Positions 38,842-57,469 of a stretch of 64,000 nucleotides of DNA are shown piece by piece. The stretch covers positions 448,001 through 512,000 of the forward strand of contig CBDBOV010000002.1 in NCBI GenBank assembly GCA_965208575.1, given 5' to 3'. Each line of letters begins with the position of its first letter. Position 1 is the stretch's first letter. A model generated the notes under the pieces. The model was not told where the DNA came from. It worked only from the letters and a program-made list of their open reading frames with translations, and did no database searches. The position numbers and the translations under genes were made by a program. Origin of the DNA: Spirochaetia bacterium (GTDB lineage: Bacteria > Spirochaetota > Spirochaetia > SZUA-6 > Bin103).

Positions 38842-40116
38842 ATGGGGTTGAAGATGAGTTCAAGGCGAGAGCTCACCGAGCAGCACGCGCAGCGGTATCG
38901 TCGGGCGGGCAAGAAGGAGAAGGGGCGCATACTCGACGAGTTCGTCGAGTCGACCGGGTACCAGCGCAAGTACGCGATCCATCTGTTGACCTGGTGGGGA
39001 CGGACCCGCATGGTGCGAGTCGACGGCACACTGGTGAAGCTGGTGGTCGGGCGTCCGCGGCCTGCCCAGCGCCGCGTGCGACCGCGGCGCTACGACCAGG
39101 AGGTGCTGGTCGCTCTGAAGCTGATCTGGTACGTGTTCGACTGCATGTGCGGCAAGCGCCTGGTGGTCGTGCTGCGCACCATGCTGCCGACGCTGGAGTC
39201 GTTCGGCGAGATCGAGCTGACCGCAGCGGTGCGCGGCAAGCTGCAGACCATCAGCGCCGCGACCATCGACCGGCTGCTGCAGCAGGAGCGCGCACGGCTG
39301 CGCCTGAAGGGTCGCACGCACACCAAGCCGGGCACCCTCCTGAAGGATCAGATCGCGATCCGAACCTTCGCTGACTGGGACGAGCAGGAGCCGGGCTTCT
39401 TCGAGATCGACTTGGTGGGCCATGAAGGCGGCAACGCGTCAGGCGACTTCTGCCACACGCTCACCATCACCGACGTTGACACCGGCTGGGTCGACCTGTA
39501 CGGCGTGCAGAACAAGGCGCAGCGCTGGACCCACGAGGCGATCGACGCTGCCCGGCAGAGCCTGCCGATCGTGATGCGGGGGATCGACACCGACAACGGC
39601 AGCGAGTTCATCAATCATCATTTGCTGCGCTATTGCGAAGCGCACGGCATCACGTTCACTCGGGGTCGCCCGCATCGCAAGAACGACACCTGCTACGTCG
39701 AGCAGAAGAATGGCCACGTGGTGCGACGGGCGGTCGGCCACCTGCGTTACGACACCGACCGGGAACTGGCTGCCCTCAACGCGATATACCGCCCGCTGTG
39801 CCTGCTGGTGAACTTCTTCTATCCCTCGGTGAAGCTGGTGAAGAAAACCCGCACCGGCAGCAAGGTGCGCCGCATCTATGACGACCCGCAGACGCCGTAT
39901 CACCGCATGCTGGCCTCCGAGTCGGTGAGCGAGAAGGTGAAGAACCGCCTCAAGCAGCAGTACGCGACGTTGAATCCGGTCGCCCTCAAGCGCGAGCTGA
40001 CCAGGTTGACCGAGGATCTGCTGCAGCTGAACGTCAGCAAGACCGCCAAGGCCGCACCAAGCACGGTGCAAACACCGAGCGAGGAGCGTGGTGGCAGCGG
40101 TCGCACGGCAAAATGA
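38842..40116 (+). CDS. rve-type DDE transposase (Rv2807-like)
   Basis: KKEKGRILDEF, SAATIDRLL, EIDLVGH, DTDNGSEFIN, KND..VEQKN. Confidence 0.88.
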   Translation: MGLKMSSRRELTEQHAQRYRRAGKKEKGRILDEFVESTGYQRKYAIHLLTWWGRTRMVRVDGTLVKLVVGRPRPAQRRVRPRRYDQEVLVALKLIWYVFDCMCGKRLVVVLRTMLPTLESFGEIELTAAVRGKLQTISAATIDRLLQQERARLRLKGRTHTKPGTLLKDQIAIRTFADWDEQEPGFFEIDLVGHEGGNASGDFCHTLTITDVDTGWVDLYGVQNKAQRWTHEAIDAARQSLPIVMRGIDTDNGSEFINHHLLRYCEAHGITFTRGRPHRKNDTCYVEQKNGHVVRRAVGHLRYDTDRELAALNAIYRPLCLLVNFFYPSVKLVKKTRTGSKVRRIYDDPQTPYHRMLASESVSEKVKNRLKQQYATLNPVALKRELTRLTEDLLQLNVSKTAKAAPSTVQTPSEERGGSGRTAK

Positions 40117-40176
40117 CCCTCTCAGGCGGGTCTGACGGTCGATAATCGGAGAATGGGCGGTCAGCGATGAGAAAAC

Positions 40177-40240
40177 GTCGCCTCAGCCGCGCTGTAAGGC
40201 CCCTCCACGACACGAGGTGGTGTCTGGATACCCCCGTGTC
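40177..40240 (+). repeat. 64-bp direct repeat, copy A
   Basis: 60/64 identical to 42149-42212 by eye. Confidence 0.85.
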
Positions 40241-40258
40241 TATGCATAACCATGCAAT

Positions 40259-41803
40259 TCAGTGCAACTTTATCCGCGACCGTAAGCCGGGTGGCGGAGT
40301 CCCGGTGCCGTCCCTGCAGTGCCTCGGCGAGGCGATTGCGGACCGCTGCCAGCCGGCTGCGTACCCGCCTGATGCTCTTTTCCAGGGCCCGGCGCACCGG
40401 TTCACGACCCGTGCGTCGGGCTCCGGCGGCGCAAGGTCATGGCTCGGCAGCGCGTCAAGGTTGAACTGCTCGCGCAGGTACTTGAAGAAGTTCTCCTGCG
40501 ACCAGCGCGAGAACATGGCGCCGGCGACCTGCGCCAACGGCATCTGCGGGTGCGTGGTGATCACCGCCACCTGACGACCGTTGGCCAGACGCCGCCGGAT
40601 CTGGCGCACCACCAGCCCGTTGCGCAGCATGATCGGCTGCTCGGCCAGATCAACCGCAGTCGTGCTGGTGCCGGCGGGACCATGGATCGGTACCTCGAAG
40701 GTGTGGAAGTCTTCCGGCAGCCAGTCCGCGCCGTTGAAGTTCTTGTGCCAGGTGATGCAGGCGATGCCACGCCGGGCCAGGCGCTTGAACAGGTCCGGGC
40801 TCCAGCCCTCGCGGTCGAACACCAGGGTCAGCTGCGGGGTACCGGCCGGTGCTCCGGTCAGGTCGGGGGCCGCTTCGGTCACCACCCCCAGGTGCTGCAA
40901 CTGCGGCACCACGTCGTGCTTGATCGCATTCACCGGCTTCGGGTCCAGCGCCTTGTGCAGGCACAGCAGCGGTGCGCCGCCGAGGGCGTTGATCCAGTAG
41001 CTCACCGACGCCGGCAGACACAGCTTCTGGCGTGCGACGAAGTGTTTCGGCAACCGCCCGTTGCGCCCGGTGTACACCTTCACGTGGCCATCCACGGCCA
41101 GCGTCGTCCAGTCGTCGTCGTGCTCGCTGGCCCAGGTACGCGCCAGTACCGATTGCCAATCGCGCACGGTGTGCTCGGCGCTGGCCAGCAGCCTGATCTT
41201 GCGGCGCAGCGTCTTGGTCTCCGGACAGCGGTCGAGGCCGAGGATGGCGCCCCACTCGCCGGGTGCCTGGTAGCGCAGGCTCTCGGGGTTGCGCACCCGG
41301 GCCAGGGTCATGCAGGCGACGAACAGGAGGATGGTGGTCAGGCCGTAGAATCCGGCCGGCAGGCGGAACAGGCGGTTGGCGGCGGTGAGCAGGCCCTCGC
41401 GCAGCAGCATCGCCAGTGCGGCCAGCACGCCGCCGCCAGCGACCGCGTGGGCGGGCTCGACGAACGCTGGTGTGGCCTCGGTCAGCAGGCCGGCTCTGGC
41501 GAGCGTGCGGCGTTCCACGTCGCGCGCCGCGCGGCCCATGGGCGCGTGCTTGTCGCGGGCGTCGCGGCTGGCGCGCTCAGTGGCGACCGCCGGGTCGCTG
41601 ACCGCGGCGGCGGTGCTGACCGGGTGATCAGTGGTGGTGGCCGCCGGCGCAACCTCGGCGCTGGCGGCGGGCTCCCGGGTGGGATCTGTGATGACGCCGG
41701 CGCGGCGGTTCTCGTTGAAGGTGCTCACCGGGATGCCGAGTTCGCGAGCGCAGGCTGAGCCGCTCATCCCGGAAGCGAGCAGCTTGGCTGCCTGGTCCGC
41801 CAT
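40259..41803 (-). pseudogene. Second DDE-type transposase, frameshifted near 40400 and truncated
   Basis: LGLDRCPETKTLRRK, VDGHVKVY, VFDREG, RWSQENFFKY. Confidence 0.75.
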
Positions 41804-42148
41804 CTCGGCGTCGTCCACGGTGGCCTCCACGGCACCGCGCCGGCTGACTCCGGTCGGGCTACGCCCTCCGTCCGTCAGCGGGGTACAGCATCTCCTCCGC
41901 CCCGTTCGATCCCGACGGCTCCGGTGTCGCAACCTCGTCGCCTACCCCGTCCCGGCGGTGGGGAATTGTCATGACCCTGCCCCGGGCAACGCACCTCGGT
42001 GCAGTTGTCCGGGGCGCCTCGCTCCGTGCGCTCCGCAGCAACCTGCGCGCCGCTCGCGGCGTGGGCGGCATCACCCGGCTCGGCAAATGACTTCTGAGCG
42101 TCTCTGACGCCCGTATATCCGTGAGCCAGACGGTCGGCGTCAAGAAAT

Positions 42149-42729: not shown

Positions 42730-43731
42730 ATGCGGGCCGCGACTCTGGTGGTCGGAGCTGTGCTGCACGTCGCGGCGGTCGCGGTCGCCGAGTCGCCGGC
42801 CCAGGACGCTGCTGCGGCGGCCAACCGGCTGCTGCAAGCGCTCGGTCCGGACCAGGCCCCCGCCGCAGTGCTGCCGCGGGACAGCAGGCTCATCGTCAAC
42901 TGGTCGAACCTGCCGGCGGGCCGGACGGGTTTCGAGCGCAACGGCATTCGCATCGGCGACCTCGGCGTTGGCGCACGCGCCGCGCTGTTCGACTTTCTGG
43001 CGACGGCGCTCAGCGCGGCGGGGGCGGAACTGGTACGGGGGATCATCGCCGCTGAGGACGTGCTGGCGGATTCGCCGCGTGCTTCCGGGCTTGGCTGGCA
43101 CCCCGACAACTACTGGCTGGCGTTCTTCGGCGAGCCGGCGGCGGGCGCTGACTGGAGCTGGCAGTTCGGCGGTCATCACCTCGCGATCAACGTGGCGGTG
43201 ACCGCCGCCGGCGTCATGAGCATGTCGCCGTCGTTCATCGGCATCGAACCGGCGGCGTTCCTGCTGGCCGGCGCCGCCGTGGCGCCGATGCGCGACCACG
43301 CTGCCGGCGGCGCGGCCCTGCTGGGCGCCCTGCCCGGCGACCAGCGCAGCGCGGCGATCGAGGCGGGCCGGCCGCGGGATTTGTACGCGGGCGCCGGCCG
43401 CGACGGCGTGGTCCCGCCGGTAGAGGGCAGCCGTGTGGCCGGCTGGCCGGCGGAACGGCAGCGCCAGCTCCTCGACCTGATCGGCCTGTGGGTGGGGGTC
43501 ATGCCGCCGGCAGCCGCCGAGCACCGGCTCGCGGCGATCGAGGCGGAACTGCCTCAGTTGCGCTTCGCCTGGCATGGACCGGTCGACGGTTCGGGCTCCA
43601 TCTACTACCGCATTCAGGGCCCGACGCTGCTCATCGAGTTCTCGACCCGCGGTTCGCTCGGCGCCGAGGGCGGCCACTACCACTCGATCTACCGCAACCC
43701 CACCAACGAATACGGACGCGGAGATTCGTAG
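42730..43731 (+). CDS. DUF3500 domain secreted protein
   Basis: Signal peptide; WSNLP, FFGEP, WQFGGHHLAIN, YYRIQGPTLLIEF, H.HSIYRNP.NEYG. Confidence 0.88.
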   Translation: MRAATLVVGAVLHVAAVAVAESPAQDAAAAANRLLQALGPDQAPAAVLPRDSRLIVNWSNLPAGRTGFERNGIRIGDLGVGARAALFDFLATALSAAGAELVRGIIAAEDVLADSPRASGLGWHPDNYWLAFFGEPAAGADWSWQFGGHHLAINVAVTAAGVMSMSPSFIGIEPAAFLLAGAAVAPMRDHAAGGAALLGALPGDQRSAAIEAGRPRDLYAGAGRDGVVPPVEGSRVAGWPAERQRQLLDLIGLWVGVMPPAAAEHRLAAIEAELPQLRFAWHGPVDGSGSIYYRIQGPTLLIEFSTRGSLGAEGGHYHSIYRNPTNEYGRGDS

Positions 43732-43882
43732 GGCGGCTGAACCCGTGCCCTCGGACGAACGTACCTGGTCGGCGAGGCGGTCGAGGCCACGGGCGGCTTG
43801 GCAAGCCCGGTGGTCGGTTGTGGTCGGTGCTCGCGGCCATGCCGCCGCGGCTCGATGTGATATGGTTGGAGAGGGATCGGCC

Positions 43883-44272
43883 ATGGGCCACGTATTCGCC
43901 GAACTGGAACTCAGCAATCCGCGGCGTGCCGACTTCGTGCCGGTGCGTGTGAATGCGCTGGTGGACACGGGGGCGCTGATGCTGTGCATCCCGGAGCACG
44001 TCGCCCGCCAGCTCGACCTGCATACCGAATCGGTGCGCGAGGTGTCGGTGGCCGACGGCCGCACGGCGACCGTACCGTACTTGGGCCCGGTGAAGGTCGC
44101 CTTCGGGACGCGGTTCTGCTACGTCGGCGCGCTGGTGATCGGCGGCGAAGTGCTGCTGGGGTCAGTACCCATGGAAGACATGGACCTGGTGGTGAACCCC
44201 GGCCGCCGGCAACTAACGGTCGACCCGGCCAGTCCCAACATCCCCCACGCCCGCGTCAAGCGCTCCGGATGG
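43883..44272 (+). CDS. Clan AA aspartic protease (AF_0612-like); expected stop reads TGG and the frame runs on to 44593
   Basis: ALVDTGA, VLLGSVPMEDMDLVVNP; the paralogous copy has TGA at the equivalent position (54241). Confidence 0.8.
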
Positions 44273-45089
44273 AGCCGTGGAGTTGCCAGAATCGGTAGCA
44301 TGATCGGCAGCGGTGCTGATGCGGCTTGTGGTTCGGTTTCCCTTTTCGACGAACAGATCGGCATCCTGGACTCATGTCGGGGAACCGAGAAGGATGGCAA
44401 CGGACGTAGTATGCTCAGCCCTGCAACGTCCGGCGTACTTTTGCCTCGGTCTCACTATCCAGACGTGCGTTGGCCAGCATGGAAAGAAACCGGTCCCGGT
44501 CGACTTCCGGGGCTATCTTGGGTATGCCCGGGATCTCGATGTGCGTCGATCCGCCTTTCACCGAGAGCTTGTACTCGCCGGGGGCCAAGGTGATACGGGT
44601 ATGAACGCAGTCCCACTGGTGCAGATGAGCGAGCTCCAGCGCGGCGGCCCTCTCCCTCGCGCGCCAGTCAGCATCATCACCAAACAACTCTCGCAAAGGG
44701 ACAGGCATGGCGGGGGCGTCGCCGAGATCGAGCTCCGAGCCGGCTAGCCGATGGGCCAGTTGGGCCATGCGGTGAGATACCGCGGCGGAGAGGTACTGTG
44801 GCCCCCGGAGCCGGAGCGGAAGGTTGAGCCACCCGTCTCGTACACCGAATAGGATTGCCGCTGCCAGCCAATCCATCTCGCCGAGCCGGTCGCTGTAGTA
44901 GTCGAAGAGGTCTCCACAGTCTCGGTACAGGAAGAACAACGTCATGGCATGCGCAAGGGGAGTGTTGTGCCGTGCGAAGAGCTCGCTGGCCGTGGAGTCC
45001 GCGATGCCGCTCAGTGACTCAAGAGCTATCCCACCGGCCCCTGGGCCGGCGCAGTCATGAAAGAAACAAGGGTGAGCTATAGTGTGGGC

Positions 45090-45285
45090 AGAGTTCTGGG
45101 TGGAGCGCGAAAGTAGGCCGGCGCGTCACTGGCGTTACGTTCTGCGAACCCGTTCAAGAGCTTGGCCCCGGGGCGGGTGGCGTAGTCATTGGTGAGGTTG
45201 TCAGCCGGCGCGGCCGGGTGGCGATCATCCCGTTCAGGAGAATACCTGCTACACACGCCTTGGCCGCACCACTCAGTCGTAGCGG
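45090..45285 (+). ncRNA. Candidate IS110 bridge RNA (boundaries approximate; equivalent in copy 1 at about 21919-22114, minus strand)
   Basis: Non-coding left end with CCCGTTCAAGAG (45149-60) and CCCGTTCAGGAG (45229-40) in predicted stem-loops; TATAGT at 45078-83. Confidence 0.6.
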
Positions 45286-45292
45286 AGGTTTC

Positions 45293-46681
45293 ATGGCACG
45301 ACGCAGACACAGACGCAAGGGCAAGGGCAGTCGCACAGCGCAACCAAAGGTGATGCACCCGGACGCTGCCGGCTTGGACATAGGCGCTACCGAGGTGTAC
45401 GCGGCTGTGCGCCCGGAGCGCGACCCGGACCCGATCCGGAACTTTGCTACGTTCACCGCGGACCTGCACGCCTTGGCCGACTGGCTCAAGGAATGCGAGG
45501 TCACCACGGTGGCGATGGAGTCCACCGGTGTGTACTGGATTCCGGTGTATCAGATCCTGGAGGCACACGGCTTCGACGTGGTGCTGGTGAATGCGCGTCA
45601 CGTGCACTCGGTACCCGGTCGGAAGTCCGACGTGGCCGACTGCGAGTGGTTGCGCTACCTGCACTCGGTGGGATTGCTGCGCGGCTCATTCCGCCCTGCC
45701 GACGAGGTGTGTGCACTGCGCTCGGTGCTGCGCCATCGCGACACCTTGATCAAGATGGCGTCGCGCAGCGTGTTGCACATGCAGAAGGCGTACAGCCAGA
45801 TGAACGTGCATCTGCACCATGCCATCTCTGACCTGACGGGGACGACCGGTCTGGCCATTACGGACGCTATCCTGGCGGGTGAGCGGGATCCGGCGCGGTT
45901 GGCCGCTCTGGCCGACCGGCGGATCAAAGCCAGCCGCGAGACCTTGATCAAGGCGCTGCAGGGCGACTGGCGCGCCGAGCACCTGTTGGCGTTGCGGCAC
46001 GCGCGAGCGACCTATGCCCACTACCAACAACTCATCACGGAGTGCGATCAGGAAATCGAAGCCGGCATCCGCGCGTTCGAAGCCAGCAGCGAGCCACCCG
46101 GCGCGGTGGGCGACGACCCACCGGATGAGGGAATCGATGCGGAGCCCGAGGCGCCAACCGAGTCACCGGCCAAGCGGTTCGACCTGCGCGGCCACCTTAC
46201 GCACCTGTTCGGCACTGACCTGACGCTGATTCCCGGCATCGGCGAAAGTACGGCGCTGGTTCTGTTCACCGAACTCGGCCCGGAACTGTCCCGCTTTCCG
46301 ACCGCACCGCAATTCGCCTCCTGGCTGCACCTGTGCCCCCACAACCAGATCACCGGCGGCAAGATCATCAGCTCGCACACCGGTCGGGGCACCAATCGGG
46401 CCGCCCAGGCGCTGCACTGGGCGACCCAGTCGTTGTACCGCAGCCCATCGGCCCTGGGCCAGCACTTCCGCCGCATGCGGGCGCGTCTGGGTACTCCCGA
46501 AGCGACCACTGCAGTCGCGCATAAACTGGCTCGGATCATCTACCATCTGATCACGCATCGCGTGGCCTACGATGACAGCATCCTCGCCGCCGAGGAGCGC
46601 CAGGACCGGCGCCGCTTTGAACGCCGGCTCCGAAGGCAGGCACACGCACTCGGTTATGAGCTTGTCCCGGAGGCCGCCTGA
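45293..46681 (+). CDS. IS110 DEDD transposase/recombinase
   Basis: Translation identical to copy 1. Confidence 0.93.
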   Translation: MARRRHRRKGKGSRTAQPKVMHPDAAGLDIGATEVYAAVRPERDPDPIRNFATFTADLHALADWLKECEVTTVAMESTGVYWIPVYQILEAHGFDVVLVNARHVHSVPGRKSDVADCEWLRYLHSVGLLRGSFRPADEVCALRSVLRHRDTLIKMASRSVLHMQKAYSQMNVHLHHAISDLTGTTGLAITDAILAGERDPARLAALADRRIKASRETLIKALQGDWRAEHLLALRHARATYAHYQQLITECDQEIEAGIRAFEASSEPPGAVGDDPPDEGIDAEPEAPTESPAKRFDLRGHLTHLFGTDLTLIPGIGESTALVLFTELGPELSRFPTAPQFASWLHLCPHNQITGGKIISSHTGRGTNRAAQALHWATQSLYRSPSALGQHFRRMRARLGTPEATTAVAHKLARIIYHLITHRVAYDDSILAAEERQDRRRFERRLRRQAHALGYELVPEAA

Positions 46682-47674
46682 TTGTTGTTTCTCAGGAGTG
46701 TCCTGCAGCTTCCTGACGCCCGCCTGCACCCGCGGGTCCAGGGTCGCCGAGGTCTCAGCCAAGTAGTCGAGCAGCACAGTCTCGGGGTTCTTGGCGTTGC
46801 CCGCCTCGCGCCACTTCGCAAGCCGCTCTACGGCTCCCCAGAAGAGGGCTCCCTGATAGGCGTTCTGCAAACTCGTCCGGTCCGTCTCGGGGTCGCGAGA
46901 AGCCAGAAGCGTCGCGGTTCCTTCCCGCATCCAGGGTTCAAGCCCGGCGAGTATCGCGCCGTCATCCGCCGGCACCGGGGAGACGCCCGGCTCGAATGCA
47001 GTCCGGCACGCTCGAACCGCCTGGTCGCCGAGGTTGCCGAAGAGAAACAGCATCGCCGTGACAGCGCCCGCGGCGAGCGGGCGTTCAAGTGGTACGCTCC
47101 GTTCGCGGGGACCATTCTCGGGCGGCCACTCCGTATCACCACCCCTGGCGAACAGCGCCTTCTTCGTCGCGTCCCTCCTGAAGTCCCCCAGAGGAACGTT
47201 GCCGAAGTCCTTCGCGCTCCTCTCGCACACCAGCCTGTCGTCGCGTGACTGGAAAAGAATCGACTCGATCCGGGACGTGGGGAGCGGCGCGGGTACCAGG
47301 AACACCCACTCGGTCCCGTCGACCTCGTGCGGAAACTGGATCTCCCTCAGGCCACCTTGCCCCACAGCAGCTACTCTGCCCGACAACCCGGTGAGGCCGA
47401 TTCGCACAATGACCGGCATGAGGTGTCCCTCCTGCGTGGCCGACTCGACCGCTGTTGCAGGCGCTTGGTCGACGAACAGGGGTATCCAGCCTGGAAAGCA
47501 CTCCAGCGAGTCGCGATAGTACTTCTCGCCAAACCCGGAGGGCGGCATCACCAGACCGGCCGCGAGCATGTACATCAGGTTGAGGTGATTGGTCACCAGG
47601 AGCGCCGATTTGGGCGCTGGAACTTCCTCCTTGGCATCGGACTTGATCAACATCAACTGGTCAGAGTCGGCCAC

Positions 47675-48839
47675 CTACAGCTCCTTGCGCCGCAGCACTT
47701 CCCGGTCGGTGGGCAGAATACTCTCGATGTCACTGCTACGGCCCCGCTTCATGAACATGAACACCCGGTCCCTGGCCCGGGCGATCATCACGTAGAACAG
47801 ACGCCGAGTAACATCGGGATCGTTCCGTCGAAAGTAGTGTTCGTCGATGTCCGCAAGCACTACCGTGTCGAACTCAAGACCCTTGCACGCCTGCGCGTTG
47901 ATCACCAGGATGCCGCCTTCGTCAAAGCGCACCTGGGGACGTTCATCGCCCCAGAACGTGATGATTTTCGGGGGCGCGTTGTCGAGCTGAACGTCTACTG
48001 ACCGAAGCTGCTGCACGTAACGTCGTCTCACTGTGTTCTTTGGCGTGATGATCCCTACGAGCTGGCGCGGGTTTCGGTCGGCAAAACGCACGACAGCGCG
48101 TGCAACCTTGTTCAATCCCCGTTCGTCGTATCGGTAGAGAAGCGGAGTGGGGCCCCGATCGACCGGGGGAATCTCCGGTGGCGGGCTCGCCGGATCGCCG
48201 GTGTAGAACTCTCGCGCCAACCGTGCCACGTGGTAGCGATTGCGATAGTTCCGCTTGAGTTCGACCACCGCGTCCGTATCGATGGCCAAACAGTCCTGGA
48301 TATCCTTCCGACTGCTGTTTTTTTTCGGTAATCTGCTGATTCTGGTCGGCGACGACGAAGAAACGGTCGAAACCAAGTCCCACCAGTGAGTCATAGAACT
48401 GCCGCGGCATGTCCTGTCCTTCGTCAATCACGAGAAACGGACGCTCGCCGTCATCATTCTTGGGCAAGTCCTGGACGATCTGTTCGACACCGCACCACTC
48501 GATCGCCCGGTAGCCGTTGTCGTTCGCATCCTCCAGGGGAGCGGGTCGACCCGTGACCTCCTTGAAGACCTCCCGGAACCAGGCATCCCATGTCCTGCCC
48601 TCGAGCCGGCCGCCGAACAACTGGCCGCTCGCGCGGTCGAGGAGATGATTGAAGACGAGGAACACGTAGCGGTCCCGATCTCTTTGGTGGCGCCTTGCGC
48701 GGAGCAGAGCGAGCACGGTTTTGCCCGTTCCGGGGCCACCGATGACCAGGTGCTGCCCGGCGCTCGGTAGGGCGCGTACTCTCTCCTGCTCCTTGCTCAA
48801 ATCCTGGATACGTGGCAGCACGAATCTGCGATTGGCCAT
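47675..48839 (-). pseudogene. SF1 (UvrD-like) helicase/ATPase with +1 frameshift in an A8 tract
   Basis: GGPGTGKT, VIDEGQD, ADQNQQI / NYRN, KGLEFDTV, FYVMIARAR; T8 at 48318-48325 on the + strand. Confidence 0.85.
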
Positions 48840-50677
48840 CAGACGGTCGACTCCGCGTGGTCAGTAAGGGGAGCGATATCGGGCGCGGCGCCGGTGACGA
48901 ATGCGCGGTCGAGGAGAACGTTACCGATAGGACAGCTTGGTTCCGGTACGAGCGCACAAGCGTGGCATGCTGCGCGATTAAGCAGATCCGGCCCATGCCC
49001 TTCCTGTTCCGCGCATACTGGGTCCATCGAACACCAGCTCGCTGCCTCGAATGCTGCGGTCAGCAGGCGAAGGAATTTTAAGGGCTTTGCCATCTCCATC
49101 AGGCCGCCCAGCGATCCCTCCTGGTCGGCGACGGCCACGTAGATCAGAATCCCCGCCATCGGCGCCTTGCCGGTGCGGCTGTAGACGCGTTCTTTCAATG
49201 CGGCGGCCGGATATCCTGCTTCCGCGTCGAGCCGGCGAATGATCAGGTGGGCGAGTGTGTGGCACAGCAGGAAGCGCGGCGACACCTCGACGTGGCCTTC
49301 CGGCGTTGCCTGACCATTGCGGTGGTCGTACCGCTGAGCAAAGGCGTCTGCTCGTCGTTGGAGCGCTTTGCCGGCCTCCCAACGCTGCAGCATCGCCTCG
49401 TCGAGGGTAAAGAAAATCCCCTCTCCATACAGCTCCAGGGCGGGAAGCCAGTCGCTCTCTCCAGTCAGGTCCGGCGGCGTCACGCTCCCGCCCACACGCT
49501 GGAACCCCTTGAGCACCAGGACTTCCTTCAGCCTGTTGATGGCGATGAGCCGCGAGACCGTGCTCGCGACACGTCGCGCGCCGCCTGGAGCGACCTCATT
49601 GCGTAGAGCCTTCCACCCGTCAGTGTGGTGCTCAGTGACGAAGTCCTCGTCTTCCCTCAGGTCGGGGATTCTCTCGGCCAGCGCCCGGTATTCATCCGCC
49701 ATCAGATCCCCGTCCGTAATTGTCTGGTCGTAGAGCGGGTAGCCACCGTCGATCTTCGCAAGCGCGGCCTCGATCTGCTCGGGAGCGCAGCGATACTCGG
49801 TGGCGAGCTGTCTGACCGCGGCCTTCCGTGCCAGGCTGTTCCGAGCGTTCCGAACCCGGTCCTGATTTCGGGCGCTGCCGTACAAGTGGTCGAGGACCGT
49901 GCCGCGCCGGATTCTCGACTCCGGCGGAATGACGAGCGCAGTGCGGGTCATCGGGTAGTGGACCCGCACATTGTTGATATCCATCACCCAAGCCAGCTCC
50001 GCAGATGACTGCGCCGGCCGTTCGCGAAACCAGGGCTGCCGCCACGCGCCGGACGGGAATGCGGTTCGGGGCAGCGAGCCCGACCTCAGGCTGGCGCTCG
50101 ACCTGCAACGCTCGCAGATGATCCGGCGGCCGGCCGGTGTGTCGCTCAGTCGTAGGTAGGGTTCGGTCCAATCAGGGGGACACTGGCGCCGCGCCGGGTC
50201 GCGAGAATCAGCGTGGGCCAAGTCGTGCCAGGGCACGTCTGCCAGATAGCCCTCTTCGTGAACGAGAACCCAGGGCACCTGCTCCAGTCGCCCGCTGCAC
50301 GCACTACTTTCTCCTTCGTGTCCCCAACACTCGCGCGCCCCTCTCCGTGCTCGCCACGGCGCCGGGTGCAGCAAGCCGCACTTCAGACAGCGCATCCAGG
50401 TAGGGAACTTCAGGGCCGGAATCCATCCAAGGGTCTTCCCGTCTCGCTCTGTCGCGCGCGGCGGGCTGCAGAGTGCCTGGTGAATACCGAGGGCGCTCCG
50501 TACCCGCTCCACGTAGCGAATCTCCCGATCCATGGGATCGCTCCCCGGACGATCCCAGGTGCTGGTGTCCTGCACCACCATCAGACTGTCCGCGCCGTCG
50601 CGTACGATAGCGCCGACCGAGCACTCGCGTAACAGGTGGGACAGGCGAACGGGTACGTCTACGTCCTTGTCAGTCAT
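48839..50677 (-). CDS. DUF1998 domain protein (DrmB-like)
   Basis: FPTWMRCLKC, HTLAHLII, GYPAAALKERVY, EGSLGGL, CSMDPVC...ACHAC..PEPSC. Confidence 0.9.
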   Translation of the reverse strand: MTDKDVDVPVRLSHLLRECSVGAIVRDGADSLMVVQDTSTWDRPGSDPMDREIRYVERVRSALGIHQALCSPPRATERDGKTLGWIPALKFPTWMRCLKCGLLHPAPWRARRGARECWGHEGESSACSGRLEQVPWVLVHEEGYLADVPWHDLAHADSRDPARRQCPPDWTEPYLRLSDTPAGRRIICERCRSSASLRSGSLPRTAFPSGAWRQPWFRERPAQSSAELAWVMDINNVRVHYPMTRTALVIPPESRIRRGTVLDHLYGSARNQDRVRNARNSLARKAAVRQLATEYRCAPEQIEAALAKIDGGYPLYDQTITDGDLMADEYRALAERIPDLREDEDFVTEHHTDGWKALRNEVAPGGARRVASTVSRLIAINRLKEVLVLKGFQRVGGSVTPPDLTGESDWLPALELYGEGIFFTLDEAMLQRWEAGKALQRRADAFAQRYDHRNGQATPEGHVEVSPRFLLCHTLAHLIIRRLDAEAGYPAAALKERVYSRTGKAPMAGILIYVAVADQEGSLGGLMEMAKPLKFLRLLTAAFEAASWCSMDPVCAEQEGHGPDLLNRAACHACALVPEPSCPIGNVLLDRAFVTGAAPDIAPLTDHAESTV

Positions 50678-53600
50678 GGACACGTTCGTTCCGCGCCGTC
50701 GCGCGCGGCCACTCATGGATTCTCAACGCCGCGGTGCCTTCCACGTTCCGCATCGAGTGCAAGGTCGCCCACAGGCCGGGACGCGCGTCGCCGTGCGCGT
50801 AGAGCAGTCGGTCGGCGTTTCGTTCGCTGGCCGGCGCTTGGTACTTGAGCTGTCGTCGGCCTTGTTCACAGCGCCGCGCTTCGTCGTGCCACTGTTCGAC
50901 CAGACGTTCGAGATGGCGCTTGGTGTCAGACCGCTGGCCGGAGTCAGCAGCAGCGTGTCCACAACGCCGCTCGAGCTCGGCGATCGCAGCCCGCACTTCG
51001 GGCGCGTTCCGGTCGAAGTTCCCCGCGGATGCATTGCCACGCAGGTCGATGCACGTATGTCGGAGAGCAATGACGAGGACGGCATGGAGCGCACGCGATC
51101 GAACCTGGTGGGTAAAGGGCGTCACACTGCTCGGCTCCACGAAGCGGTAGAAGGATTCGTGGTAGGGGCGGAAGCTCTCGTAGTGAGACAGACTCCGAGC
51201 TTGGTGCCGGTAGTAGTTGGCAAAGATGAGACCAGGAACGTCCCCGCGCCCGACTCGGCTGGTCGCCTGGATGTATTCTGCGGTGGTAAGCGGCTGGCCG
51301 TTCACGACCATCAGTGCAAGGCGCGCCACGTCGAGGCCGACCGATATCATGTTGGTTGCGAGCACCGCGTCCAGGCAGCCATCGGCCTCCCGGCTCCTCG
51401 TTAGTCGCTGAAACGTCTCGGCATTCTCCTCGGCCGGCCGCCGACTTGTGAGCTGAGCAACGCGTGCGTACTGCAACCGCCGTGCCGTGCCGTCCGGTTG
51501 ATGGTCTTGATCGACGAAATCGGGAGCATACTCGTTGTCTCGCTGTTCGGCACGCCCGCCGGTGAGCCACCGTCCGAAGTCGCGTACGTCAGTCATGAAC
51601 GCGTTGTGACTGTTGCCCACTCCTTTGAGGCTACCGTGGTAGATCACCTGGGTCCACCACGCATCGAGCAACGCGTCCCGGTCGGGACGTCCGTCGAACA
51701 CTGCCGGCGGGGCGGCAAGCAACGCCGCGGCGAGCGGCGCGAGGCAACGCTGTTGATCGAGCATCGGCGACAGATAGCCGACATAGAGCCGCCCCGGATG
51801 CTCCCGGTCCGCGCGTGCGAAGTAGGAGTCGTCGTGTGACAGTCCCGGCGGCGGAAGCACGGCAAGCTCGCGCGCATACAGGCGCCGAACCTGCTGCTCC
51901 GCCAACCGGATGGTGGCGGTGGAGGCGACGTACTTTGGACGAACACCGCGCTGGACCAGCAGCGTTTCCAGTCCCGCTTCGTACAGCCCCGCTACCGAAC
52001 CGAGCGGCCCCGTGATCAGGTGCAACTCGTCCTGGATCACCAGCTCCGGCGGACGCGAGCCGTTGCTGACACCGAAGAACGCGCCGGCCCGGTCATCCCA
52101 TGCGAGACGCGCAAACTTGTCGATGGTTCCGACCAGCAGAGAAGGCGGGCGTCGATAGAGCGCTTCGTCCACGACGTTGCAGGGCAGCGGGAGTGAATCG
52201 ATGCCGAAGGCACACTGCCCGGCTGAGCACTGGAAACCGAAGTCATCTCCGGTTGCATGGTAACCCAACTCGACGTCGAACGAGGTGCCGCACCACGGAC
52301 AACGCTCCAGGAGCAGCTTGTAGCGCGCATCCGGTCTTCCATCCCTGATCTCGTCCACCAGCTCCCGAGCCTGGACGAACGTGTTGGGGCTGATCTCGCG
52401 GCCGACCCAGATGCCGATGTCGATGGGTGCCTCACCGAGCCGCGCTGGATTTCCCCTTCGGATCAGTTCCAATGCGCCAACCATGCGCGCCGCACGTTCG
52501 AACTGCTGGCGCGTAAGCAGTCGCAGCGTGTAACGCATGAGGGCGCACGTCCCGCCTCCCGAAGAGGGATGCTTCAGGCGTCGCCATACGATGAGAAACG
52601 CGATGATGCCAAGGTAGGCTTCGGTCTTGCCGCCACCAGTGGGAAACCAGATGAGGTCCAGCACGTCGCGAAACGCGTCTTGTTCCCGGATCACGGACTC
52701 CATGGTCGTGAGCAGGAATGCCAACTGAAACGGACGCCAGCGGTAGGTGCCGGTGTCCCGGCCGGCCACCCGATCTGCCTGGCGCATCTGATCGAGCATG
52801 GCGCGGTTCGCCAACCGAAACGCCTCTTCGGCGAGCGGGTCCGTGCGTAACATCTCGATGCAGGCGCGCATCCGTTTGAGGGCAATGTCCATCCTGCCGC
52901 AGATTCGGTTCGCGGTAGCCCGTTCCTCCCCGTTCGGGAACGCCGACGCGACGCGGATCTGCTCGGCAACCCAGTCGGCGTATCGGTCGACAAAGCGACC
53001 GAGCTCATCCGGTATCGGCGCCGCGGCGAGCCGGGCGAGGGAAAGGACGCCCTCTTCTCCGCACGTTTCGACGGTGATCAGCGGCACTTCAGCTTGGGGC
53101 ATGAATTCGGACCAGATCCGCGCTGGTTGGCCATGTTTCAGGTCCCAGTCCGCCGCAGCACCGTGACCGATGGCGTAGATTCGTAGTCGCCGGTACTGAA
53201 GCTCAAGCTCCTGCTCCTCCTCAGTGAGCAGACTCGGGTCGACTCGTGGGTAGTCGACAAGCTCGCCGTTCTCGATCACGCACTCCAGGCGAGCCTCGAA
53301 CAATGAGTTCTCTACCCGATCGCTTGTTCGGTCGCGACCCGGAGCGGTGGCGTCGAGTTCGGCGCGGTTCGACAGGGTAACGGTCAAGATGAGGCCGTCT
53401 CGATAAGGCCGGGCGCGAGTGTTTATGCTGGCGCGACCTTCCCAGATCCGATTGCTGGTCACGTTGCTTGGAGCAGCGGACCGCGTCCATGTAACGACGC
53501 ACTCCGGAAGCTTTGACCGCTCGTACTGCGGTGGGAGGAATCGGCCCTGCTCGTCACGCCCATGGTTGCGATCCTGGTAGACTGCGGCAAATGGCACGAT

Positions 53601-53930
53601 TGAGAGGCGAATATTTCCCCGGACGAAAAACGAGAAGCCAACTGAGGACGGCGGCACGTACCGCCGCCGGCGTGCCGGTTGGGCAACCTGATCATCCTGC
53701 ACGTCGTCTGATGGTGCCGTGTCCTCCTGGTCGTCGAGGAGGGCTCCCTCCGCTTCCTCTAACCCGGCCGAAGCCGGGTCGATCCCGGCGCGGTCGGAGC
53801 CGATGGGATGCAGCACCCCGGCCGGAAATCGATCCAGCGGGGAGATCCGCAGGCTTCCGTCCCTGGCCGATCCCATGAGCTGGCGGCGCAACCACGCGAC
53901 GAGCACGTTCCTTTCTTCGACGTAGTTCAC
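50670..53930 (-). CDS. SF2 helicase (DrmA-like)
   Basis: YAIGHG, WRPFQLAF, LIWFPTGGGKTEAY, RYTLRLLT.QQF, IQDELHL, ATNMISVG.D..RL, EYIQATSRVGR, VEPSSVTPF. Confidence 0.9.
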   Translation of the reverse strand: MNYVEERNVLVAWLRRQLMGSARDGSLRISPLDRFPAGVLHPIGSDRAGIDPASAGLEEAEGALLDDQEDTAPSDDVQDDQVAQPARRRRYVPPSSVGFSFFVRGNIRLSIVPFAAVYQDRNHGRDEQGRFLPPQYERSKLPECVVTWTRSAAPSNVTSNRIWEGRASINTRARPYRDGLILTVTLSNRAELDATAPGRDRTSDRVENSLFEARLECVIENGELVDYPRVDPSLLTEEEQELELQYRRLRIYAIGHGAAADWDLKHGQPARIWSEFMPQAEVPLITVETCGEEGVLSLARLAAAPIPDELGRFVDRYADWVAEQIRVASAFPNGEERATANRICGRMDIALKRMRACIEMLRTDPLAEEAFRLANRAMLDQMRQADRVAGRDTGTYRWRPFQLAFLLTTMESVIREQDAFRDVLDLIWFPTGGGKTEAYLGIIAFLIVWRRLKHPSSGGGTCALMRYTLRLLTRQQFERAARMVGALELIRRGNPARLGEAPIDIGIWVGREISPNTFVQARELVDEIRDGRPDARYKLLLERCPWCGTSFDVELGYHATGDDFGFQCSAGQCAFGIDSLPLPCNVVDEALYRRPPSLLVGTIDKFARLAWDDRAGAFFGVSNGSRPPELVIQDELHLITGPLGSVAGLYEAGLETLLVQRGVRPKYVASTATIRLAEQQVRRLYARELAVLPPPGLSHDDSYFARADREHPGRLYVGYLSPMLDQQRCLAPLAAALLAAPPAVFDGRPDRDALLDAWWTQVIYHGSLKGVGNSHNAFMTDVRDFGRWLTGGRAEQRDNEYAPDFVDQDHQPDGTARRLQYARVAQLTSRRPAEENAETFQRLTRSREADGCLDAVLATNMISVGLDVARLALMVVNGQPLTTAEYIQATSRVGRGDVPGLIFANYYRHQARSLSHYESFRPYHESFYRFVEPSSVTPFTHQVRSRALHAVLVIALRHTCIDLRGNASAGNFDRNAPEVRAAIAELERRCGHAAADSGQRSDTKRHLERLVEQWHDEARRCEQGRRQLKYQAPASERNADRLLYAHGDARPGLWATLHSMRNVEGTAALRIHEWPRATARNERVHD

Positions 53931-54042
53931 GAGGTGAGTGGTGCCTTGCGTATAGGGAGTGGATACTCCCGTGCGCTATTCTGTACTTATAGTTCACATT
54001 TCGGCAAGTAGTGTAACGCATCGGTGAATCGGGATCATTTGC

Positions 54043-54243
54043 GTGGGCCAAGCGTTACTGAGCTGCAACTCAGCAGTCCGCGGCGCACCGACTTCGTGCC
54101 GGTGCGGATGAATGTGCTGGTGGAGCGATCGAGCCGACGCTCTGCATTCTCGGTGGCGAAGCCCGACAGCGGGCGAACGACGGTAGATGGTCGACCCGGA
54201 TAGTCCCACCATCCCCCACACCCGCGTCAAGCGCTCCGGATGA
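54043..54243 (+). pseudogene. Degenerate, internally deleted copy of the aspartic protease at 43883
   Basis: 5' and 3' segments align with about 43883-43965 and 44218-44272; DTG motif lost. Confidence 0.8.
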
Positions 54244-54643
54244 AGCGGTGCGAATGCGACAAGCGGTGGTGGCGGGCGACGAAGTCGGCACCCACCGCTC
54301 CGGTCGGCACGGCAGCAGATGGGGGACCGAGCGGGCTGCCGCGGGTGGCGGTGGTCGTGAGGGCCCACGCACCGGGCGGGTCGGACCATCTTTTGCAGCG
54401 CGGGGCGGGTTCCTGTCGACCTGCACCAAAATAACTGCAGAAAATCGGGCGCAGGGGTTGACGCACTTTTCCGCTGCCGCTGAGGGCCGCTGGCGGGCCG
54501 TGAAGCCCGGCAATGGTCTGCGACCGTCAAGTGGCCGACCGCGTGCCCCTGGAGCCGCCGATTCGCGCCCCAGTGGCGCTGCAGGTGCCGGATCGAGGAC
54601 CTGCCAAGAAGTGCTATCTACCGGCCAGTGGTATATTTAAGGC

Positions 54644-57469
54644 ATGACAAACATGACCGGCGGGACCGCCAGACGACCCTTCAGCTCACTCGGCGATCAG
54701 CAGCTCCTGGAGCAGACCCGGCGCCTGGCGGCCAACCAGCGCGGCCTCGAAGTGCACATCCTGGACCATCTCGACGAGATCGACCGGCGTGGGCTGGCGC
54801 TGCGGCGCGGGTTCTCGAGCCTGTTCGACTACGCGGTGCGGGAGTTGCGGTTCACCGATGCGGCCGCGCAACGGCGTATTCAGACCATGAGGTTGTGCCG
54901 GCGGCATGGCTGGGTGCGGGCCATGCTGCACAGCGGCGAGTTGAGTGTGACGTCGGCGGCGCAGTTGGAGACCGCGTTTGGCGCCGCCGAGCGCCAGTGC
55001 CGGAGAGCGAGCGCGCCCGTCGATCAGGAGCGCTGCCAAGCTCTGCATGGGCTGCCTGCGGTGCCGAGCGGAGCGGGAGATCAGGATGCCGAAGCGTCGG
55101 GAGCGGGGATGGCCGGTGCCGCGGCGGTGGCGGCATCGGCGCCGCCCGGCGTGGCCGCCGTCGCCCAGGAGCTCGGTGACGCCAGAGGCTGCGGGGCCCG
55201 GCATACCGGGAGTGACGGCTGCAGGCGACTGTCGGTCGAGCCGGAGGTGCGGTCGCTCGATGACGCCGGAAGCCGCGAGGAGCGGCATGCAGAGCGCGAC
55301 CGTTGCAGGCGATCGTCGGCCGACTCGGAGGCGCAGTCGCTCGGTGACGCCGGCGGCCGCGGGGACCGGCATACCGAGAGCGACCGTTGCAGACCATCGT
55401 CGGACGGCTTGGCGGCGCAGTCGTCCCGTGGCGTCGGGGGCCGCGAGGACCGGTATGACGGGAACGACGGCTGCAGACGGCTGTCGGCCGGGCCGGAGGC
55501 GCGGTCGCTCGGTGACGCCGGCGGCCGCGAGGAGCGGGATGCCGAGAGCGACCGTTGCAGGCGATCGTCGGACGGCTCGGCGGCGGTCGGTGCCCGCCCG
55601 GCAGCGGCGGGTGCGCAGCCGGTGGGCCGATGGGACTCGAGTGCGGCCACCTCGGGCGCTGCACCGGCTTCGACGGCCGCCACGCTGCACGCGCCGCCGC
55701 CTGCGGCGCCGGGGCGTGTACCGCGGCCCGGGCTCACGGGTACTGAGGCCGCGACCACGCCGGTGGTGCCGGTGACGAGCCACGCGGCTGCGCAGCACCG
55801 CGGCGCCCGGCATGGCGATGCGCTGCCGGCGCGCCGGGAGTCGAGCGGAGCCGCCGGGCACTCTCCGGCACCGTTGCGCGCTTCCGGTGCCGCCGTGGCC
55901 TCCTCGGACCAGGGCCCGGCGGCGCCACTGCTGCCGCCGGCGAGGGGCGCCGAGCCGGGACCGTTGCCGGTCGTGGCCCCATCGGAGCCGCGGCTCACCG
56001 CTGCGCTCGCACCGGCGCCGTCGCGGGGTGATCGGAACCCGGAACCGTGTTCCGACCCGGAACTGCGGTCCGGCCCGGAGCGGTCCGCCGGGCCGGTGTC
56101 CGCCGCCGCGCTGCTGCACCCGCGGCGGCAGCGCGAGCTGATCGAGCAGGCCGCCGGCATGACCACGCGCCAGGTCGCCGGCCTGCTGGCCAGTGCCGCT
56201 CCGCAGGTGGCGCCGCCGCGCGACACGCTGCGTGCGGTGGCGCCGGACCGCTACACGTTGAAGGTGAGCATCGACCAGGAGTGCGAGCAGGGACTGCGCC
56301 ACCTGAAGGACCTGCGGTCGCACGTCGACCCGCGCATGTCGTGGGGAGACCTGGTGGCGCGCCTGGTGCGCGAGGCGGTGGCGCGGCACGACCCGCGCGG
56401 CGGCGGTGGCAGGCGGGGGCGTACGGGCGGCACGGCAGCATCGTCGCGGCGGGAGCGGACCGGCACACCCTCGGTCGTGGCGGCGGCCGCGGCCGGCGGG
56501 GAGCAGCCGCGGGCCGCGACGATCCGCAACGCTGCCGGGGTGCGCGGCGTTGCGCCCGCCGCCCCGACGGGCGGTGCAAGGTCGGTTGGCGCCCGCGCAG
56601 GTGCCGCTGTTTCGGCCCCGCCCGCCGTTACAGCGGCGCCGGAGGGTCGGAGCGCCGGCGGCGGCCCCGCCCACGGCACTGGTGCGACGCGGATCCCGCG
56701 GGCCACGACTGCGCCGCCGAGGTTGGCCAGCGGCGGGCCCGCCGGCGGCGCTGATGCCACGGGGATCCGGCGGGCCACGAGTGCGGCGCCGAAGTTGGTC
56801 AGCGGCGGCTCTGCCGACGGTGCAGATGCGACGCCGATCCGATCGGCAACGACTGCGGCGCCGGAGTTGGTCAGCGGCGGCTCTGCCGACGGTGCAGATG
56901 CGACGCCGATCCGGTCGGCAACGACTGCGGCGCCGGAGTTGGTCAGCGGCGGCTCTGCCGACGGTGCAGATGCGACGCCGATCCGGTCGGCAACGACTGC
57001 GGCGCCGGAGTTGGCCAGCGGCGGCTCTGCCGACGGTGCAGATGCGACGCCGATCCGATCGGCAACGACTGCGGCGCCGAGGTTGGTCAGCGGCGACCCC
57101 GCCGACGACGCTGGTGCCACGCGGATCCCGCGGGCAACGACTGCGGCGCCGAAGTTGGCCGGCGGCGTGCCGCCTGCGCGTGGTGCGGGCGGCACGCCGG
57201 GGAGAGCATCGCCGCAGTGCACCCGCGATGCTCCGCTCGGCCCGCGCCGGTCGCCGCCGCGGCGCACCATTCCGGCGGCTGTCCGGCGTTACGTCTGGCT
57301 GCGCGACGGGGGGCGCTGCCGCTATCGGGATCCGCTCACCGGTCGCCGCTGCAATTCGTCTCACCTGCTACAGATCCACCACCTGCTGCCAGTTGCCGAG
57401 GGGGGCGGCCCGGAGCCGGAGAACCTGGTTCTCGCGTGCCTGGCGCACCACCGCATGTGTCACGCCTAA
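54644..57469 (+). CDS. HNH endonuclease-domain protein with DUF222-like N-terminus and repeat linkers
   Basis: HLDEIDRR...GFSSLFDYAVREL; C-terminal VWLRDGGRC...C...IHH...GG...NL...C..HH. Confidence 0.8.
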   Translation: MTNMTGGTARRPFSSLGDQQLLEQTRRLAANQRGLEVHILDHLDEIDRRGLALRRGFSSLFDYAVRELRFTDAAAQRRIQTMRLCRRHGWVRAMLHSGELSVTSAAQLETAFGAAERQCRRASAPVDQERCQALHGLPAVPSGAGDQDAEASGAGMAGAAAVAASAPPGVAAVAQELGDARGCGARHTGSDGCRRLSVEPEVRSLDDAGSREERHAERDRCRRSSADSEAQSLGDAGGRGDRHTESDRCRPSSDGLAAQSSRGVGGREDRYDGNDGCRRLSAGPEARSLGDAGGREERDAESDRCRRSSDGSAAVGARPAAAGAQPVGRWDSSAATSGAAPASTAATLHAPPPAAPGRVPRPGLTGTEAATTPVVPVTSHAAAQHRGARHGDALPARRESSGAAGHSPAPLRASGAAVASSDQGPAAPLLPPARGAEPGPLPVVAPSEPRLTAALAPAPSRGDRNPEPCSDPELRSGPERSAGPVSAAALLHPRRQRELIEQAAGMTTRQVAGLLASAAPQVAPPRDTLRAVAPDRYTLKVSIDQECEQGLRHLKDLRSHVDPRMSWGDLVARLVREAVARHDPRGGGGRRGRTGGTAASSRRERTGTPSVVAAAAAGGEQPRAATIRNAAGVRGVAPAAPTGGARSVGARAGAAVSAPPAVTAAPEGRSAGGGPAHGTGATRIPRATTAPPRLASGGPAGGADATGIRRATSAAPKLVSGGSADGADATPIRSATTAAPELVSGGSADGADATPIRSATTAAPELVSGGSADGADATPIRSATTAAPELASGGSADGADATPIRSATTAAPRLVSGDPADDAGATRIPRATTAAPKLAGGVPPARGAGGTPGRASPQCTRDAPLGPRRSPPRRTIPAAVRRYVWLRDGGRCRYRDPLTGRRCNSSHLLQIHHLLPVAEGGGPEPENLVLACLAHHRMCHA
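55172..55580 (+). repeat. 84-nt (28-aa) coding tandem repeat, about 5 units
   Basis: Units start at 55172, 55256, 55340, 55424, 55508 (LGDAGGREERxxESDRCRRSS..). Confidence 0.85.
56681..57165 (+). repeat. 72-nt (24-aa) coding tandem repeat, about 6.5 units
   Basis: ATTAAPELVSGGSADGADATPIRS; central units nearly identical. Confidence 0.92.

Follow-up and report, generated by a model that had tools for sequence, protein, structure and literature searches.

How DISARM kills phage DNA and avoids its own host is unclear, and its nuclease and its methylase are the usual suspects. The system occurs in two classes, in which drmABC is joined either by drmD and drmMI (class 1) or by drmE and drmMII (class 2). 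In the account given in PMC9142583, DrmAB is autoinhibited by a trigger loop and is activated by DNA with a 5′ single-stranded overhang. The passages on helicase families in Bell et al. 2025 (bioRxiv 10.1101/2025.09.15.676423, PMC12458937) define ARMADA, BRIGADE and TALON, place a MrfA/YprA repair branch within the YprA helicase family, and describe the DISARM systems as the only branch with a consistently split helicase. Here we analyze a 64,000-nucleotide stretch (hereafter, the window) of a Spirochaetia bacterium (GenBank assembly GCA_965208575.1, contig CBDBOV010000002.1, positions 448,001 to 512,000), in which a DrmA-like and a DrmB-like gene are followed by genes for a small superfamily 1 (SF1) helicase, HEL1, and for a 528-residue protein, G4. 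We think it fairly likely that this locus preserves, in decayed form, a DISARM-like cassette that is conserved, moves horizontally and has no methylase.

The DrmAB core and the two genes behind it

The four genes lie co-directionally on the minus strand at positions 44415–53930, each overlapping or abutting the next. The first, g1 (50670–53930), is an open frame of 1086 amino acids encoding a superfamily 2 (DExH) helicase, which matches the PADLOC DrmA model PDLC02575 (E = 9.1e-195), the solved DrmA chain (PDB 7s9v_A, E = 3e-121) and Pfam Helicase_C. The second, g2 (48839–50677), is likewise open and encodes a DUF1998/MZB protein of 612 amino acids when read from the ATG chosen in the initial annotation of this DNA. 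It scores 324 bits against NCBIfam DrmB_fam, above the 240-bit cut-off, and matches PADLOC DrmB (E = 3.8e-56), PDB 7s9v_B (E = 1.5e-53) and Pfam MZB/DUF1998. Judged by sequence, g1 and g2 are homologues of the solved DrmAB complex of DISARM.

The third gene, g3 (47675–48839), encodes HEL1, a UvrD-like helicase of about 388 amino acids in its relatives, and is frameshifted in the window. It starts at an ATG at 48839; the N-terminal half, with Walker A and AAA_19 (47943–48839), and the C-terminal half, with UvrD_C_2 (47675–48427), are read in separate frames. When intact orthologues of 387–388 amino acids (from loci L009 and L023, see below) were aligned by tblastn, the frame switch fell at about orthologue residue 172, inside a run of eight A residues that we read directly at 48318–48325. 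HEL1 partially matches several GajB models (E = 1e-8 to 8e-14), with coverage of the conserved helicase ends only, and it has an invariant N-terminal segment, residues 7–23.

The fourth gene, g4, is split by a 1681-bp insertion sequence on the plus strand (45018–46698, with boundaries that may be off by as much as about 8 nt). Its transposase open reading frame (ORF; 45218–46681) matches Pfam DEDD_Tnp_IS110 (E = 7.3e-20) and Transposase_20 and scores 250.9 bits against NCBIfam transpos_IS110, over the 140-bit cut-off; by this DEDD transposase, the element belongs to the IS110 family. On one side remains an N-terminal part of G4 (46699–47674, 325 codons, GTG start), with an ADP-ribosyltransferase-like domain and the start of a helical domain, and on the other a C-terminal part (44415–45017, 200 codons and a stop), with the rest of the helical domain followed by a small beta domain. 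Removal of about 1673 nt yields an open frame of 528 codons that is colinear with an intact 528-amino-acid relative, P0001: the N-terminal part is 81% identical to residues 1–326 of this protein and the C-terminal part 92% identical to residues 327–527. The insert is 100% identical to positions 20506–22186, located 23 kb away in reverse orientation, which suggests recent transposition. One copy sits between bacilliredoxin-like and ilvD-like genes and the other inside g4, and their immediate flanks are unlike.

Reading the gene junctions directly, we found an 8-nt overlap between g1 and g2 (common letters ATGACTGA), a TGATG overlap between g2 and g3, and a TAG followed directly by GTG, with zero gap, between g3 and g4. 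The cassette block has 61–67% G+C per kb, compared with 69–77% in most flanking kb. The initial annotation had proposed four minus-strand genes with these three junctions and an apparently lower G+C content than the core genes; their coordinates and identities, the junctions and the composition were all borne out. It had also spoken of a repaired operon with 528 amino acids for the fourth product, and indeed g3 and g4 are both broken and g4 is open over 528 codons once the insert is removed. A promoter and terminator scan of positions 43600–54700 was uninformative (no promoter-like site with 1.4 expected; five terminator-like sites with 5.9 expected). As the annotation had also stated for drmC, drmD, drmE and a methyltransferase, none of these was recognizable nearby: the window ORFs scanned against Pfam and PADLOC gave no match to a methyltransferase, a PLD nuclease, DrmC, DrmD or DrmE.

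Related loci and genomic surroundings

Is this arrangement particular to the window? A word-indexed search returned 656 G4 relatives, and an exhaustive search of 50%-identity representatives gave at least 411 G4-family proteins at E ≤ 0.001, 172 of them at E ≤ 1e-30. From a scan of one genome per species, we took as our locus sample the best 80 of 161 stretches encoding a G4 relative. These loci come from Alpha- and Gammaproteobacteria and Acidobacteriota, with single records from Caldilineaceae, Verrucomicrobiae, Latescibacterota, Binatia, Syntrophobacterales, Clostridia and others. When six pieces of the window were searched by tblastn, the order DrmA, DrmB, HEL1, G4 on one strand was found in 74 of the 80 loci. 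The other six loci are truncated at contig ends (L069, L080) or carry partial deletions: L029 and L031 are without DrmA and DrmB, L038 is without DrmA and L071 without DrmB. The junction between HEL1 and G4 was measured in 39 loci: in 25 of these, the stop of the first overlaps or directly touches the start of the second (−4, −1 or 0 nt). HEL1 and G4 are conserved at 40–70% identity alongside DrmAB. In a single protein of 1370 amino acids (P0271), part of DrmB, HEL1 and G4 are read as one chain; being a single case, it is taken either as gene-calling read-through across the overlapping stops or as a rare fusion, and is not used as evidence.

The flanks of the cassette behave differently from the cassette itself. 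We clustered 1072 non-overlapping ORFs from all loci and found that, once the cassette genes and the ORFs antisense to them are set aside, no cluster occurs in more than 7 of the 80 loci, the few common ones being shared by closely related Acidobacteriota. Thus, with the four-gene order kept and the flanks unrelated between lineages, the cassette appears to move as a unit into unrelated contexts. Searched in protein mode, P0001 had no match in either plasmid or phage records. Three pairs of loci each come from one genome: L058 and L060 (OZ251506.1), L039 and L067 (OY282353.1), and L002 and L013, on two contigs of one metagenome-assembled genome. L067, in which DrmB and G4 are fragmented, looks degraded.

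To the flanks we also applied the PADLOC models, using 291 cluster representatives of the 366 ORFs of at least 180 amino acids that lie within 5 kb of the cassettes. None of the 291 matched DrmC, DrmE, DrmMI or DrmMII. One SNF2 protein (L018) matches DrmD models, but matches ZorD and DpdE better, and L060 has an unrelated type IIG enzyme-methylase at a distance of 3 kb from its cassette. Within 5 kb, the related loci therefore do not regularly carry the methylase or drmC that, in the terms of the initial annotation, would mark a deleted DISARM. Defence-family matches near cassettes include type II, III and IV restriction enzymes, AbiE, AbiL, AbiT, PD-Lambda-4, PD-T4-4, ZorB, DruE, PsyrA and several PDC candidates. 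In two alphaproteobacterial loci, L001 (1-3033) and L002 (2-2965), the gene directly upstream of DrmA on the same strand encodes a methyl-directed restriction enzyme of type IV (PADLOC mREase_IV, E = 4.7e-250); it combines PLD, helicase and DUF3427 domains, and no other PLD domain was seen near a cassette. DNA ligase genes, ATP-dependent or NAD-dependent LigA, occur shortly downstream in L019 (13454-14293), L043 and L016 and in a group formed by L044, L047, L048, L052, L053 and L064. These ligase neighbours, found in two separate locus groups, could reflect shared flank ancestry or a functional link.

In 36 loci, the cassette includes a fifth gene. Directly downstream of G4, it encodes a protein of about 527 amino acids with a Pfam NERD domain and an SF1 helicase core (AAA_30), whose match to PADLOC RTasNERD-Hel spans the whole protein (E = 2.5e-35 to 1.3e-60). 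In L055 and L073, the NERD-helicase gene lies just upstream of DrmA instead. A tblastn search of the window for a remnant gave no match at E ≤ 1e-3. We then placed the window DrmA in a tree of 51 rows, limited to DrmA ORFs of 1000–1250 amino acids: it falls inside a 25-row clade (Shimodaira–Hasegawa-like approximate likelihood ratio test support 100), its position within the clade being unresolved, and 21 of the 25 rows come with the NERD-helicase. Because its DrmA belongs to this mostly NERD-helicase clade, the window copy has probably lost the fifth gene. The unit is therefore not always the four genes of the initial annotation, 36 loci having the NERD-helicase gene as a fifth one after G4. 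Taken together, the frameshift in HEL1, the IS110-split G4 and the missing NERD-helicase indicate that the window copy is probably dead.

Around the cassette, the window holds transposases (rve integrase, Transposase_29), a Phd antitoxin, a DUF3500 protein and ordinary metabolic genes. The Phd/YefM-type antitoxin, rve-integrase and Transposase_29 ORFs occupy 38445–41941, a few kb from the cassette, and the lower-G+C stretch from about 36 to 54 kb looks like a variable region. Further away are a Schlafen/AlbA_2 and HATPase_c_4 protein (26947–28293) and a DUF4143 ATPase fragment (30450–31358) that matches the PADLOC candidate PDC-S01 (E = 2.7e-35); members of both families are found again next to the cassette in several of the related loci (L019, L023 and L024 among them). 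On the other side, divergent from g1, the plus strand carries an ORF of 941 amino acids and 77% G+C (54644–57469), whose sole matches are to a C-terminal HNH motif (Pfam HNH, 1.2e-4; weak IscB-like, 1.1e-5). An antisense ORF (54686–57364) nearly equals it, so that the true gene is uncertain. We rejected the HNH-motif ORF as a part of the system because no conserved gene is found upstream of DrmA in the related loci.

The fold of G4 and its predicted complex with HEL1

What kind of protein is G4? It has no family match in Pfam-A, PADLOC-DB v2.0.0 or NCBIfam release 20. An AlphaFold2 model built from a 62-sequence alignment (pLDDT, the predicted local distance difference test score, 92; predicted template-modelling score 0.92) shows an alpha/beta domain (residues ~22–170), a helical domain (~195–460) and a small beta domain (~465–527). 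When the model was compared with the PDB by Foldseek, the top match was DarT (7omx, E = 4.5e-5, probability 1.0, target template-modelling (TM) score 0.59, about 200 columns), followed by tRNA 2′-phosphotransferase and then by ADP-ribosylhydrolases at E of about 0.1. In its model, the N-terminal domain of G4 resembles the DarT ADP-ribosyltransferases at fold level. DarT is an ADP-ribosyltransferase of single-stranded DNA.

Profile and language-model searches gave fainter signals. Thirteen of the 62 G4 members match the Pfam family 2CompART (PF22546), a domain of the ADP-ribosyltransferase kind, below threshold, over residues ~21–165 (best E = 1.4e-5, 25.7 bits with a cut-off of 27 bits), and one of the 62 matched Pfam DarT (PF14487) at E = 0.21. 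A language-model search with residues 20–185 returned DarT, DarT/PARP, OspC and Arr clusters at 0.84–0.88, which we treat as leads only. A Foldseek search of viral models gave nothing usable (best E = 7.3e-4, root-mean-square deviation 18.9), with faint RNA 2′-phosphotransferase and ADP-ribosylglycohydrolase rows. Three designed or helical PDB proteins that came up with the G4 profile (E = 0.021–0.65) were taken as noise.

The middle domain was also folded alone (pLDDT 88.8, 36 sequences). Among the matches listed by Foldseek, only ADP-ribosylglycohydrolases appeared (ARH3, DraG, 2yzv and others), with a probability of mostly 0.8–1.0, E = 0.03–0.25 and TM scores of 0.23–0.45 (0.96–1.0, 0.03–0.07 and 0.33–0.45 for the top ones). 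The similarity is weak, and we say accordingly that the modelled middle domain weakly resembles ADP-ribosylglycohydrolases. No macro or NADAR domain was matched in any cassette protein. The fourth product had been described as an unknown 528-amino-acid protein; this stands as far as family matches go, but structure prediction and Foldseek now give it ADP-ribosyltransferase-like and ADP-ribosylhydrolase-like domains.

The catalytic features of DarT, in the part of PMC11543638 that deals with them, are H-Y-E, an Arg and the ADP-ribosylating turn-turn (ARTT). The N-terminal domain of G4 holds the most conserved polar residues of the protein, N29, N32, K51, D55, E82 and N159 (P0001 numbering), each kept in 90–100% of the 62 rows, together with a PAPLP motif. 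The first His of the N-terminal DarT motif may be replaced in G4.

We also modelled HEL1 together with G4, using the proteins of L009 (22-row and 30-row alignments, respectively). The complex scored 0.81 (0.80, 0.81 and 0.82 in the single runs), and the best of three controls scored 0.00. Of 80 solved complexes, 58 attain this mark, compared with 2 of 110 mismatched pairs; both counts are rough, own alignments having been used. Between runs, at least 92% of the contacts are the same, with a partner pLDDT of at least 86. In the predicted interface, HEL1 residues 7–23 meet G4 residues 29–36, 47–51, 81–83 and 151–159 (L009 numbering). These models support the prediction that HEL1 and G4 bind each other. 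We know of no solved complex like this one, and by sequence G4 is without a relative in the PDB.

Role of the cassette and comparison with described systems

Our best reading is that the cassette is a distinct, undescribed variant made up of DrmA, DrmB, an SF1 helicase, an ADP-ribosyltransferase- and ADP-ribosylhydrolase (ARH)-like protein and often a NERD-helicase, without a methylase. The initial annotation had put forward a candidate undescribed defence system with a DrmAB sensor joined to another helicase/effector module, no methylase and possibly no dependence on methylation, as opposed to a DISARM reduced by deletion. The synteny and the flank scan support this pairing, and as to novelty, no PADLOC-DB v2 system model matched G4 and HEL1 as a whole. 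Nor did we find a description of the cassette in the full-text literature that pairs DISARM, DrmA or DUF1998 with NERD, UvrD, DarT or ADP-ribosyl (subscription papers being outside this scope), and in a 2022 survey of NAD+ and ADP-ribose we found no passage on DISARM, DrmA or DUF1998. From homology and context, defence is the most likely role, and a probable one.

What could the mechanism be? DrmAB would recognize and unwind invading DNA. The HEL1-G4 module would then act on the exposed single strand or on NAD+, through ADP-ribosylation or NAD+ consumption, and the NERD-helicase, where present, would cut DNA. Self would be spared by the structure of the substrate, not by methylation. That the cassette works by ADP-ribosylation is an attractive reading, which we nevertheless hold to be unlikely. 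In a fuller version, also tentative and rather unlikely, the cassette would be a helicase-guided DNA ADP-ribosylation defence: DrmAB unwinds foreign ends, and the DarT-like domain of G4 modifies the single strand or uses up NAD+, thereby blocking replication, while the ARH-like domain and the N-terminal segment of HEL1, lying on the conserved transferase-like surface, hold the enzyme off until activation, discrimination being achieved without methylation. If true, such a mechanism would join DISARM sensing and DarT chemistry, so far separate principles.

Several points weigh against the variant reading and against this mechanism. (i) As to sampling, the 80 loci were found through G4 and not through the DrmA clade, and all of them are titled metagenome-assembled genomes. 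(ii) At least 23 loci have another match to a PADLOC defence family (E ≤ 1e-10, within 5 kb), which is context and not a measured enrichment. (iii) g1 scores 787.9 bits on NCBIfam DISARM_DrmAS, under the 950-bit cut-off, and is thus a homologue and not an equivalog. (iv) The frameshift at the A8 run could stem either from a genuine mutation by slippage or from an error in sequencing the homopolymer. (v) The N-terminal domain of G4 remains under every Pfam gathering score, and the G4 profile, searched against the PDB at E up to 10, gave no match to DarT by sequence. (vi) The ARH-like match of the middle domain stays under a TM score of 0.5, and no conserved adjacent acidic pair was seen in the helical domain over the 62 rows. 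(vii) The G4 residues of the predicted interface lie in or beside the conserved polar patch, so that the patch may be an active site covered by HEL1 or a mere binding surface that has no part in catalysis.

The last of these points leads to the alternative that survives best, which is possible although not the more probable course: the cassette serves defence, but G4 is a pseudo-enzyme whose ADP-ribosyltransferase- and ARH-like folds form a scaffold or a regulatory clamp for HEL1 and possibly for DrmAB, with a helicase or nuclease as effector. No canonical ADP-ribosyltransferase motif could be assigned in G4, the similarity is at fold level only, the ARH-like domain is without a conserved di-acidic site, and the polar patch of the N-terminal domain coincides with the predicted contact to HEL1 residues 7–23. 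Yet the six polar residues are kept at 90–100% across 62 sequences that are 28–85% identical to the first, a pattern usual for a ligand or active site. Moreover, the cassette lacks a nuclease gene in roughly half of the loci, so that another effector activity is needed there.

A second alternative, to which we give a low probability, is a DNA-repair or genome-maintenance module akin to the MrfA/YprA branch, which would for example process or reverse ADP-ribosylated DNA. The repair branch that Bell et al. 2025 (PMC12458937) describe within the YprA family, the ADP-ribosylhydrolase-like domain of G4 and the DNA ligase genes that adjoin some loci (L019, L043; LigA of the L044 group) would all suit such a role. 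Against it, the helicase has the split DrmA/DrmB form that is consistent only in the DISARM branch in that paper's family overview; the cassette is patchily distributed across phyla with unrelated flanks, is present twice in some genomes (the three pairs named above) and is low in G+C in the window; and its NERD-helicase partner matches a defence-associated model, with other defence genes within 5 kb in at least 23 loci.

It is similarly improbable that the system has already been named in a recent DefenseFinder or PADLOC release, a subscription paper or a supplement, in which case the window would only add a further member. Table S1 of Bell et al. 2025 (PMC12458937) counts 3487 "DISARM-like" occurrences, and the passages concerned are rows of an undivided "DISARM-like helicase" without sub-classes; a DISARM-like cassette beside McrBC in Bell et al. 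2024 (PMC11090510) is deferred there to a later, separate paper on such cassettes; and Pfam already holds the 2CompART domain, whose source paper we did not find in the literature. On the other side, G4 is unmatched in the three family databases searched, the full-text literature gave no description of the cassette, and the terms "ADP-ribos" and "DarT" do not occur in the main text of Bell et al. 2025 (PMC12458937, term search). Finally, a classical DISARM stripped by deletion of its methylase, DrmC and DrmD or DrmE, with two unrelated genes standing behind DrmB by chance, would fit the true homology of DrmA and DrmB to DISARM proteins and the decay of the window locus (frameshift, IS insertion, transposases nearby), but is very improbable and already contradicted by synteny, as DrmA-DrmB-HEL1-G4, with coupled junctions, is retained by 74 of 80 loci from several phyla, DrmAB is accompanied by conserved HEL1 and G4, and none of the 291 flank representatives matches DrmC, DrmE, DrmMI or DrmMII.

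We return to the distinct DISARM-like variant. Since this conserved cassette keeps only DrmAB and swaps the remainder, the DrmAB motor appears to be a reusable sensor module. The cassette also makes it possible to ask cleanly whether DrmAB tells self apart when methylation is missing. Should G4 prove to be an ADP-ribosyl enzyme active on DNA or NAD+, it would be a new type of effector for helicase-based immunity. The 80 loci come from uncultured lineages only, which may explain why the family was missed.

How does the cassette compare with its closest relatives? HEL1 partially matches GajB of Gabija, but has about 388 amino acids compared with about 600, and none of the cassette proteins gave a GajA match. 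In 36 loci, the fifth gene matches RTasNERD-Hel, a model of the NERD-helicases that partner defence-associated reverse transcriptases; the cassette has no reverse transcriptase, and the gene is missing from the window. Like ARMADA type II (ArmA-D), as presented in the sections of Bell et al. 2025 (PMC12458937) on that system, the cassette combines a YprA-family helicase and an extra UvrD/GajB-like SF1 helicase in one operon. ARMADA adds a helicase like BrxHII, a methylase like PglX and a fusion of RelE with GajB, none of which was matched in the cassette; the helicase of the cassette is split into DrmA and DrmB, and neither the cassette proteins nor the window neighbours gave a BrxHII or PglX match. 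The paper makes no mention of a protein like G4. As for DarTG, the best structural matches of the G4 N-terminal domain are to DarT, and the domain joined to it, which resembles an ADP-ribose-removing fold, echoes a writer and eraser logic. G4 has no significant sequence match to Pfam DarT, however, and unlike in DarTG its second domain resembles ARH/DraG and neither a macrodomain nor NADAR, and both domains form one polypeptide within a helicase operon. Because defining parts of each of DISARM classes 1 and 2, ARMADA, DarTG and Gabija were looked for and not found, we conclude that the cassette is none of these. DrmC, DrmD or DrmE and the methyltransferase were not found in the window, nor were DrmC, DrmE, DrmMI or DrmMII among the 291 flank representatives, and unlike DISARM the cassette carries HEL1, G4 and often a NERD-helicase; like both DISARM classes, it has a split DrmA and DrmB in the same order, and the DNA-sensing motor is probably common to the two.

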